From the NCBI GenBank assembly GCA_951406725.2, contig OX597827.1, forward strand, positions 34,224,001-34,288,000: a DNA stretch of 64,000 bases, given 5' to 3'. Positions 7,987 through 62,011 of the stretch are shown piece after piece; position 1 is the stretch's first letter, and every line of letters begins with the position of its first letter. Both the position numbers and the translations under genes were made by a program. This stretch comes from Octopus vulgaris. Lineage: Eukaryota. The notes under the pieces were generated by a model, which had not been told where the DNA came from, made no database searches, and saw only the letters and a program-made list of their open reading frames with translations.

Positions 7987-8315
7987 CTAAATTTTGAGAA
8001 ACATAGTAGTATAAACCCATTTAATTAATGGTATGAAATCCATTAGGACAATGGAGACAAATGGGACTATAACTACGACCAAAACCGTCGATCCAATGAA
8101 GAAAGAGGATTCTCGCTGGTCTTTCATGCTATTTTTCGATCGAATGTATTTGGAAGTATTCTTGCGCGGCATAATGAGTTCGATTTCTAATTGTTTCAAT
8201 TTCTCGTTCAGTTCTTCTTCTGTCAAGTTCTTTGGTTCAGTTTTACAACATAAACACGAATGACTAACTGGTGTAGTCCGCGTAAAATCGATATTAGAGT
8301 TCTGCTCAAGTGTAG
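7987..8315 (-). CDS. Host gene last coding exon: CLCC motif, coiled-coil segment, TM helix, short tail
   Basis: Acceptor ttttcttctgtcattacag; [28 protein letters not shown]...[32 protein letters not shown]...KI*. Confidence 0.85.

Positions 8316-62011: not shown

Follow-up and report, generated by a model that had tools for sequence, protein, structure and literature searches.

The 64,000 nucleotide (nt) window analysed here (Octopus vulgaris assembly GCA_951406725.2, contig OX597827.1, positions 34,224,001 to 34,288,000) carries most of a long gene on its minus strand, which runs from 62,011 to 7,987 with AG/GT junctions and a joined frame free of stops. The encoded protein would be a type I surface glycoprotein, with six extracellular modules, a single transmembrane helix and a short tail, a layout that is supported by the sequence features described below; in some transcripts it would probably include a mucin-type stalk.

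Gene model and the stalk exon

The complete frame has 17 exons and 1,003 amino acids (aa), with no stop codon and with every intron GT-AG; 15 exons and 942 codons are in the window. It is composed of 14 window exons, two upstream exons obtained by mapping Octopus models back to the genome, and an added in-frame PTT exon (Table 1). An earlier note, made from the letters of the window, had described 14 exons and about 888 codons; the stop-free multi-exon frame stands, with the count revised. The donor of exon 1 is weak (GTCTCC), yet it is consistent with both full-length RefSeq models. Past the signal exon there is phase 1 at nearly all module borders, and each of five modules is split over two exons, with phases 1-0-1.

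With the one exon at 37,566-37,334 as protein query, the same gene was located as an unnamed prediction in O. sinensis (XP_036365096.1, LOC118766049, 792 aa) and O. bimaculoides (XP_052828546.1, LOC106876258), and a partial model exists in O. vulgaris itself. The gene is thus annotated as uncharacterized in three Octopus species and is not hidden, as had been thought. The O. sinensis model is identical at 784 of 792 aligned residues, and the identity to O. bimaculoides is 83-90% in each module.

The exon lengths and phases are matched in three paralogues: exon 9 is 233 nt in four out of four copies, and exon 7 is 212, 212, 221 and 212 nt. Exons 7-8 were compared with four sequencing runs, in one of which (X1, taken as RNA by guess) a contig matches the whole of exon 7 with 15 differences, reaches each border exactly and continues past the borders with 138 and 182 non-genomic letters, as would be expected for a spliced transcript of a relative. 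The remaining read tables for these exons are dominated by an intronic repeat, which swamps the reads, and none of the matches listed joins exon 7 to exon 8. The independent models in two other species, the exon lengths and phases of the paralogues, and the X1 contig would together suggest that the gene model is more than chance.

Exon 16 is 73% Thr/Ser/Pro and contains seven near-identical 39 nt units. In both full-length RefSeq models, and in an older O. bimaculoides 3' model, exon 15 is joined directly to exon 17. The open frame of exon 16 is slight proof by itself, because opposite-strand frames of the repeat are also open. Its AG/GT ends, in phase 1-1, delimit the Thr/Ser/Pro stretch exactly, a Thr/Ser-rich frame is present at the same place in the paralogues g2, g3, g5 and g7, and RefSeq retains the exon for g5 (P0006). 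The DNA also resembles the g3 stalk (78% over 98 nt, low complexity). The exon is probably used in at least some transcripts. The PTT mucin stalk proposed earlier is therefore found as a PTT-rich in-frame exon, without a sure place in the protein, since RefSeq models skip it.

Module folds and topology

The PLAT-like pattern reported for exon 9 is present in module m3. Its segments TG..GTD and LD..NDFE align with the PLAT domain of coral 8R-lipoxygenase, and their acidic residues are presumably calcium ligands. In shuffle-tested hhalign comparisons the PLAT-like score is above the shuffles in three of the six modules (m2, m3 and m4). In the case of m4 the score of 21.5 beats 30 out of 30 shuffles at a probability of 9%, in a model with predicted local distance difference test (pLDDT) values < 50, while m0, m1 and m5 score 12.2, 9.8 and 9.6, inside the shuffle range for PLAT similarity. 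An eight-stranded PLAT beta-sandwich is predicted for m2 and m3. PLAT repeats in every module were rejected as a reading, as only three out of six exceed the shuffles; the suggestion that the other modules are divergent PLATs holds in part, with m0 and m1 leaning towards F5/8C-like and FN3-like folds. One of the four exon 5 copies, that of g7, has an fn3 match (E 8e-4, 20 of 25 bits, below the cut-off), and PKD-like repeats match m1 weakly.

The best structural match in the Atlas is a LOXHD1-like cluster (aa 258-448, TM-score 0.55), and there is a weak PKD1 match (E 0.16). LOXHD1 consists of nearly all PLAT repeats, has no transmembrane helix and is intracellular; here, three of six modules are PLAT-like, and a transmembrane helix and a signal-like segment are present. 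Pfam searches with the whole protein found no lipoxygenase, lipase or phospholipase C catalytic domain, each module being ~90-110 aa, and no REJ or GPS match. Searches of PDB sequences with exon 4, exon 11, the whole protein and the C23 queries gave no useful match. A single-sequence AlphaFold model was discarded (pLDDT 33.7); the second structure model retained 8 of 42 paralogue exon fragments, most being left unplaced by MAFFT.

By sequence inspection, aa 15-28 form a hydrophobic stretch, which exon 1 closes with a plausible cleavage site. A single Kyte-Doolittle transmembrane peak starts at aa 963-978, followed by a tail of 17 residues with no recognisable signalling motif, in agreement with the one helix and the tail of about 17 aa described before. 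Within aa 31-683 there are 19 N-glycosylation sequons, where 7.0+-2.4 are expected and none of 2000 shuffles reach this number; the excess is also seen in g2 and g7. The sequons listed in the earlier note are all present, and their excess, the hydrophobic N-terminus and the single helix support the outward placement of the modules made there.

A HMMER search with the N-terminal 537 aa against 1.84 billion representatives returned 10 matches. Four of them are named Octopus proteins and two are short fragments without a name; of the other four, one is an unnamed poly-PLAT protein and three are repeat-inflated. The PKD-repeat and Cna_B matches were set aside as repeat-inflated, with 5-6 and 4 stretches. 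The best match outside the octopus is P0007 (Logan/ENA), an unnamed protein of 2,248 aa with 11 PLAT stretches (E 5e-12), the N-terminal region of which has a weak IrrE-like metallopeptidase match. No squid or other molluscan protein is among the HMMER matches; restriction to Octopus is not established by this, because the paralogues themselves are near the detection limit of the search. Protein searches by word index, which are weak for distant relatives, returned Octopus only for both the ectodomain and the anchor. At the sensitivity reached the family was found in Octopus only, a narrower range than the cephalopods suggested earlier. No match to a characterised family was found for the predicted protein, as the earlier note had it.

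Paralogues and a shared membrane anchor

The region encoded by exon 17, comprising a cysteine cluster, a basic juxtamembrane motif, the helix and the tail, is referred to here as the anchor. With exon 17 as query there are 12 genome matches at E <= 0.001; a second anchor query gave at least 18 at E <= 0.01 out of 28 candidates, at least nine of them within 1.64 Mb of C14, all of these gene counts being lower bounds. The six-module layout, with exon sizes that match, is seen in four of the nine C14 anchor genes (the gene described here, g2, g5 and g7), and a genome search with exon 9 of g5 returned precisely these four. The paralogue exons were found by a scan of candidate exons and chosen by size, phase and similarity; exon 6 of g5 was not found, and only four 3' exons were recovered for g4. 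The modules of the paralogues are 12-27% identical to those of the focal gene, while for the anchor the six nearest relatives reach 47-55% identity. At C20:19.218-19.246 Mb (-) the 3' end of g4 occurs again as a nearly identical, partial copy, adjoining three copies of exons resembling a choline dehydrogenase-type oxidoreductase.

In g3 (C14:34,428,858-34,433,800, minus strand) a long PTT/TEST stalk exon and the anchor have no recognisable module exons within 159 kb upstream, and g3 may be a plain mucin-like member or may be too diverged. Three further C14 anchor genes have PAN-like exons, for which one of five scanned reached E 2.5e-4; one exon pair is present three times, and one gene has a 1,000-residue Ser/Thr/Gly stalk.

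No Pfam family covers the anchor motif, as none of 12 members has a match better than E 0.015, and the prediction score for two anchor copies is 0.01. It was absent from 597 and 543 pattern matches in metagenomes, a collection poor in animals. A similar C-terminal motif may be present in uncharacterized bivalve and gastropod proteins. A genome scan with Pfam PLAT gave 21 matches, two of which, on C23 and C19, accompany anchors and exceed the Pfam cut-off. On C19 the intron that follows the PLAT exon has the position of the one after focal exon 9. The exact sequence of the C23 frame is absent from the protein collection searched. The linkage of exon to anchor on C19 and C2 is by proximity and strand. 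Because PLAT, F5/8C-like and PAN-like exons accompany anchors, the anchor would appear to be a reusable cassette for extracellular domains, and PLAT outside the cell a repeated solution in this genome. The gene was likely built by phase-1 exon shuffling onto a stalk-plus-anchor cassette, followed by tandem duplication and divergence.

Table 1. Exons of the gene (window coordinates unless another sequence is named) and related features elsewhere in the genome
Feature	Position	Strand	Length, phase	Content
Exon 1	C14:34,294,183-34,294,096, outside window	-		ATG and putative signal peptide
Exon 2	C14:34,291,299-34,291,204, outside window	-		mapped from Octopus models
Exon 3	61934..62011	-	78 nt, 1-1	N-terminal module m0; F5/8C / galactose-binding-like lead
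Exon 4	59515..59694	-	180 nt	m0 second half; 180 nt in g2 too
Exon 5	53583..53761	-	179 nt, 1-0	module m1; FN3/Ig-like lead
Exon 6	46497..46587	-	91 nt, 0-1	m1 end
Exon 7	41924..42135	-	212 nt	module m2, predicted PLAT fold; contig ends at both borders
Exon 8	39231..39321	-	91 nt	m2 end
Exon 9	37334..37566	-	233 nt	module m3; clearest PLAT sequence, acidic loops
Exon 10	31827..31923	-	97 nt	m3 end
Exon 11	28838..29073	-	236 nt	module m4; weakly PLAT-like
Exon 12	22364..22448	-	85 nt	m4 end
Exon 13	19811..19903	-	93 nt, 1-1	two-cysteine linker
Exon 14	17584..17780	-	197 nt	module m5; beta-rich
Exon 15	13375..13468	-	94 nt	m5 end
Exon 16	10170..10802	-	633 nt, 1-1	mucin-type stalk; in-frame skippable; missing from RefSeq models of the gene
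Exon 17	7987..8315	-		Cys cluster, conserved basic juxtamembrane motif, transmembrane helix, 17-aa tail, stop
Three PAN/apple-like anchor genes	C14:33.93-33.99 Mb (+), 35.585-35.592 Mb (-)			tandem exon pairs
Intron-less frame	C23:3,592,140-3,594,023	+	627 aa	signal peptide, canonical PLAT (35.7 bits) and a long Ser/Thr stalk before the shared anchor
C19 canonical PLAT exon, 51.9 bits	L096:2196-2450; anchor exon L097:585-1541	+		8 kb upstream of stalk and anchor exon
F5/8C-like exon	C2, L108:8621-8839	-		DUF7402 above cut-off; 27 kb upstream of anchor, second anchor 64 kb off
Other PLAT cluster	C20:70.11-70.47 Mb			six whole-domain single-exon matches
Other PLAT cluster	C11:99.27-99.35 Mb			eight split matches

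The window is otherwise repeat-rich, and its introns carry decayed mobile elements, labelled by eye as LTR-retroelement-like protease and integrase pieces, a mariner-like transposase, LINE reverse transcriptase fragments and other transposase-like pieces. These are at 23,000-24,900 (+), 50,400-51,400 (-), 61,000-61,550 (-), 14,200-15,050, 29,700-30,500, 27,800-28,650 and 39,900-41,500. A tandem unit of 266 bp is at 43,591-44,269.

Possible function and related systems

PLAT is a docking module by which cytosolic proteins and secreted enzymes, such as lipases, sit on lipids. Tandem PLAT-fold modules are common to this protein, LOXHD1 and bacterial poly-PLAT proteins, but the octopus protein has two to three degenerate PLATs among other folds and adds a signal peptide, sequons, a stalk and a transmembrane helix. 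In lipoxygenases, pancreatic and lipoprotein lipases and clostridial alpha-toxin the PLAT is part of a soluble enzyme, whereas here it would be membrane-tethered and there is no catalytic domain. The PLAT of PKD1 is cytosolic. A large glycosylated beta-sandwich ectodomain and a PLAT in a membrane protein are shared with the polycystin-1, PKD1-like and REJ proteins, of which a coral PKD1-like protein carries PLAT in the available text (PMC4890752); the octopus protein, however, has a single transmembrane helix with the PLATs before it and no REJ or GPS match in Pfam. The Notch ligands Jagged and Delta are a functional analogy, being type I proteins with a lipid-binding extracellular C2 in the text available (PMC5538765), although C2 is not PLAT and the octopus protein has no DSL or EGF repeats. 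In organisation there is also a likeness to the tandem, molluscan PTC1/GRC, PTC2 and LG5R clusters of Biomphalaria, which in the accessible part of their description encode single-pass proteins with a signal peptide, an ectodomain of galactose-binding, FN3, PAN or disordered regions, and a small tail, with no PLAT mentioned (PMC13712769).

The reading preferred here, to which we give a probability of about 0.5, is that the protein is a non-signalling binder of lipid surfaces or partner proteins, with an outward string of beta-sandwiches of which two to three have the PLAT fold. The signal peptide would send the chain out, the ectodomain would be N-glycosylated, and, when exon 16 is included, an O-glycosylated stalk would lift it by ~200 residues. 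Calcium at m3 probably assists docking. The acidic loops retained by m3 can be aligned with those in the PLAT of coral 8R-lipoxygenase, which depends on calcium, and calcium-dependent membrane binding is described for lipoxygenase PLATs in the available text of three papers (PMC7436259, PMC9682198, PMC8740744). At the tip m0 may bind glycans, and the diverged tandem paralogues would have different ligands. Because the 17-aa tail has no recognisable signalling motif, the protein would tether or capture and not transduce. Of the lipid-binding or adhesion receptor proposed previously, the lipid binding or adhesion is kept as something we infer, while a signalling receptor is unlikely given the tail.

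Several observations weigh against this reading. The PF01477 match of the focal protein (P0001), in one stretch, is 22.4 bits against a gathering score of 23, with P0003 and P0013 at 20.4 and 20.8 bits, also in one stretch each and under the cut-off; the models of m0, m1, m4 and m5 are below pLDDT 50, and Foldseek gave no match at E <= 0.001. In the focal m3 one acidic residue conserved in three paralogues is gone, the first loop is short of three residues, and directly behind the second acidic motif is a sequon that could block membrane docking; the acidic-loop motifs are missing from m2 and m4. The sequon excess of g5 is not significant (p 0.19). Lys/Arg account for 7 of 26 residues in the flank before the helix and for 2 of 17 in the tail, so that the flank is the more basic, contrary to the positive-inside tendency, but the N-out topology is kept because the anchor relatives with extracellular-type domains argue for it. 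The stalk exon is left out by three RefSeq models, one from O. sinensis and two from O. bimaculoides.

The last of these would fit a 792-aa product whose modules lie near the membrane as a docking platform in cis, for instance for a secreted lipase or cofactor, lipase PLATs being known to bind colipase or GPIHBP1. This is improbable, in view of the exact boundaries and phase of exon 16, its counterparts in four paralogues and its likeness to the g3 stalk. It is rather less improbable, though still doubtful, that the PLAT folds have decayed to rigid glycosylated spacers in a glycocalyx or mucus layer, with specific binding by the lectin-like m0 tip or none at all. The very high sequon density, including a sequon beside the acidic motif of m3 in two of four paralogues, would agree with this, as would the low identity of the paralogues, the loss of PLAT motifs from m2 and m4, the minimal tail, and g3 with its stalk and anchor alone. 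The m0 fold, however, is a weak lead, and all four paralogues conserve the m3 residues TG, DD and F at ~20-24% overall identity, which suggests that this site is under selection. The cluster of nine or more anchor genes, with at least two ectodomain types and deep divergence, might instead encode diversified pattern-recognition or self/non-self proteins, comparable in organisation to those of the snail, in which such clusters have been linked to parasite resistance, although no PLAT-bearing member is mentioned in the accessible part of that description (PMC13712769). The identity to O. bimaculoides is even, with no fast module, and this explanation is unlikely.

The folds are known and databases already contain the gene, while the architecture and the anchor were found neither in Pfam nor in papers; the literature covered, to which supplements and subscription papers do not belong, has no paper on the family, architecture or anchor, and expression tables in supplements could name the genes. 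Returning to the capture of lipids or partners, it is a tentative further step that this is an undescribed family of outward tandem PLATs, gripping lipid surfaces in trans through calcium, be they of other cells, microbes and lipoproteins or of prey material. It would have expanded in the octopus on an unnamed cassette of stalk and anchor, by which PLAT, discoidin-like and PAN domains are shuffled to the cell surface. If true, the fold would be put to a new use in a membrane-anchored tandem-PLAT ectodomain, namely extracellular lipid or protein capture from the cell surface. The intron-less single-PLAT relative on C23 would be a simple construct for testing such extracellular use. The anchor lacks a Pfam family, but at least 18 octopus surface genes whose ectodomains differ are marked by it. 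It can therefore be annotated as a module and gives access to a class of cephalopod surface proteins that are so far uncharacterized.
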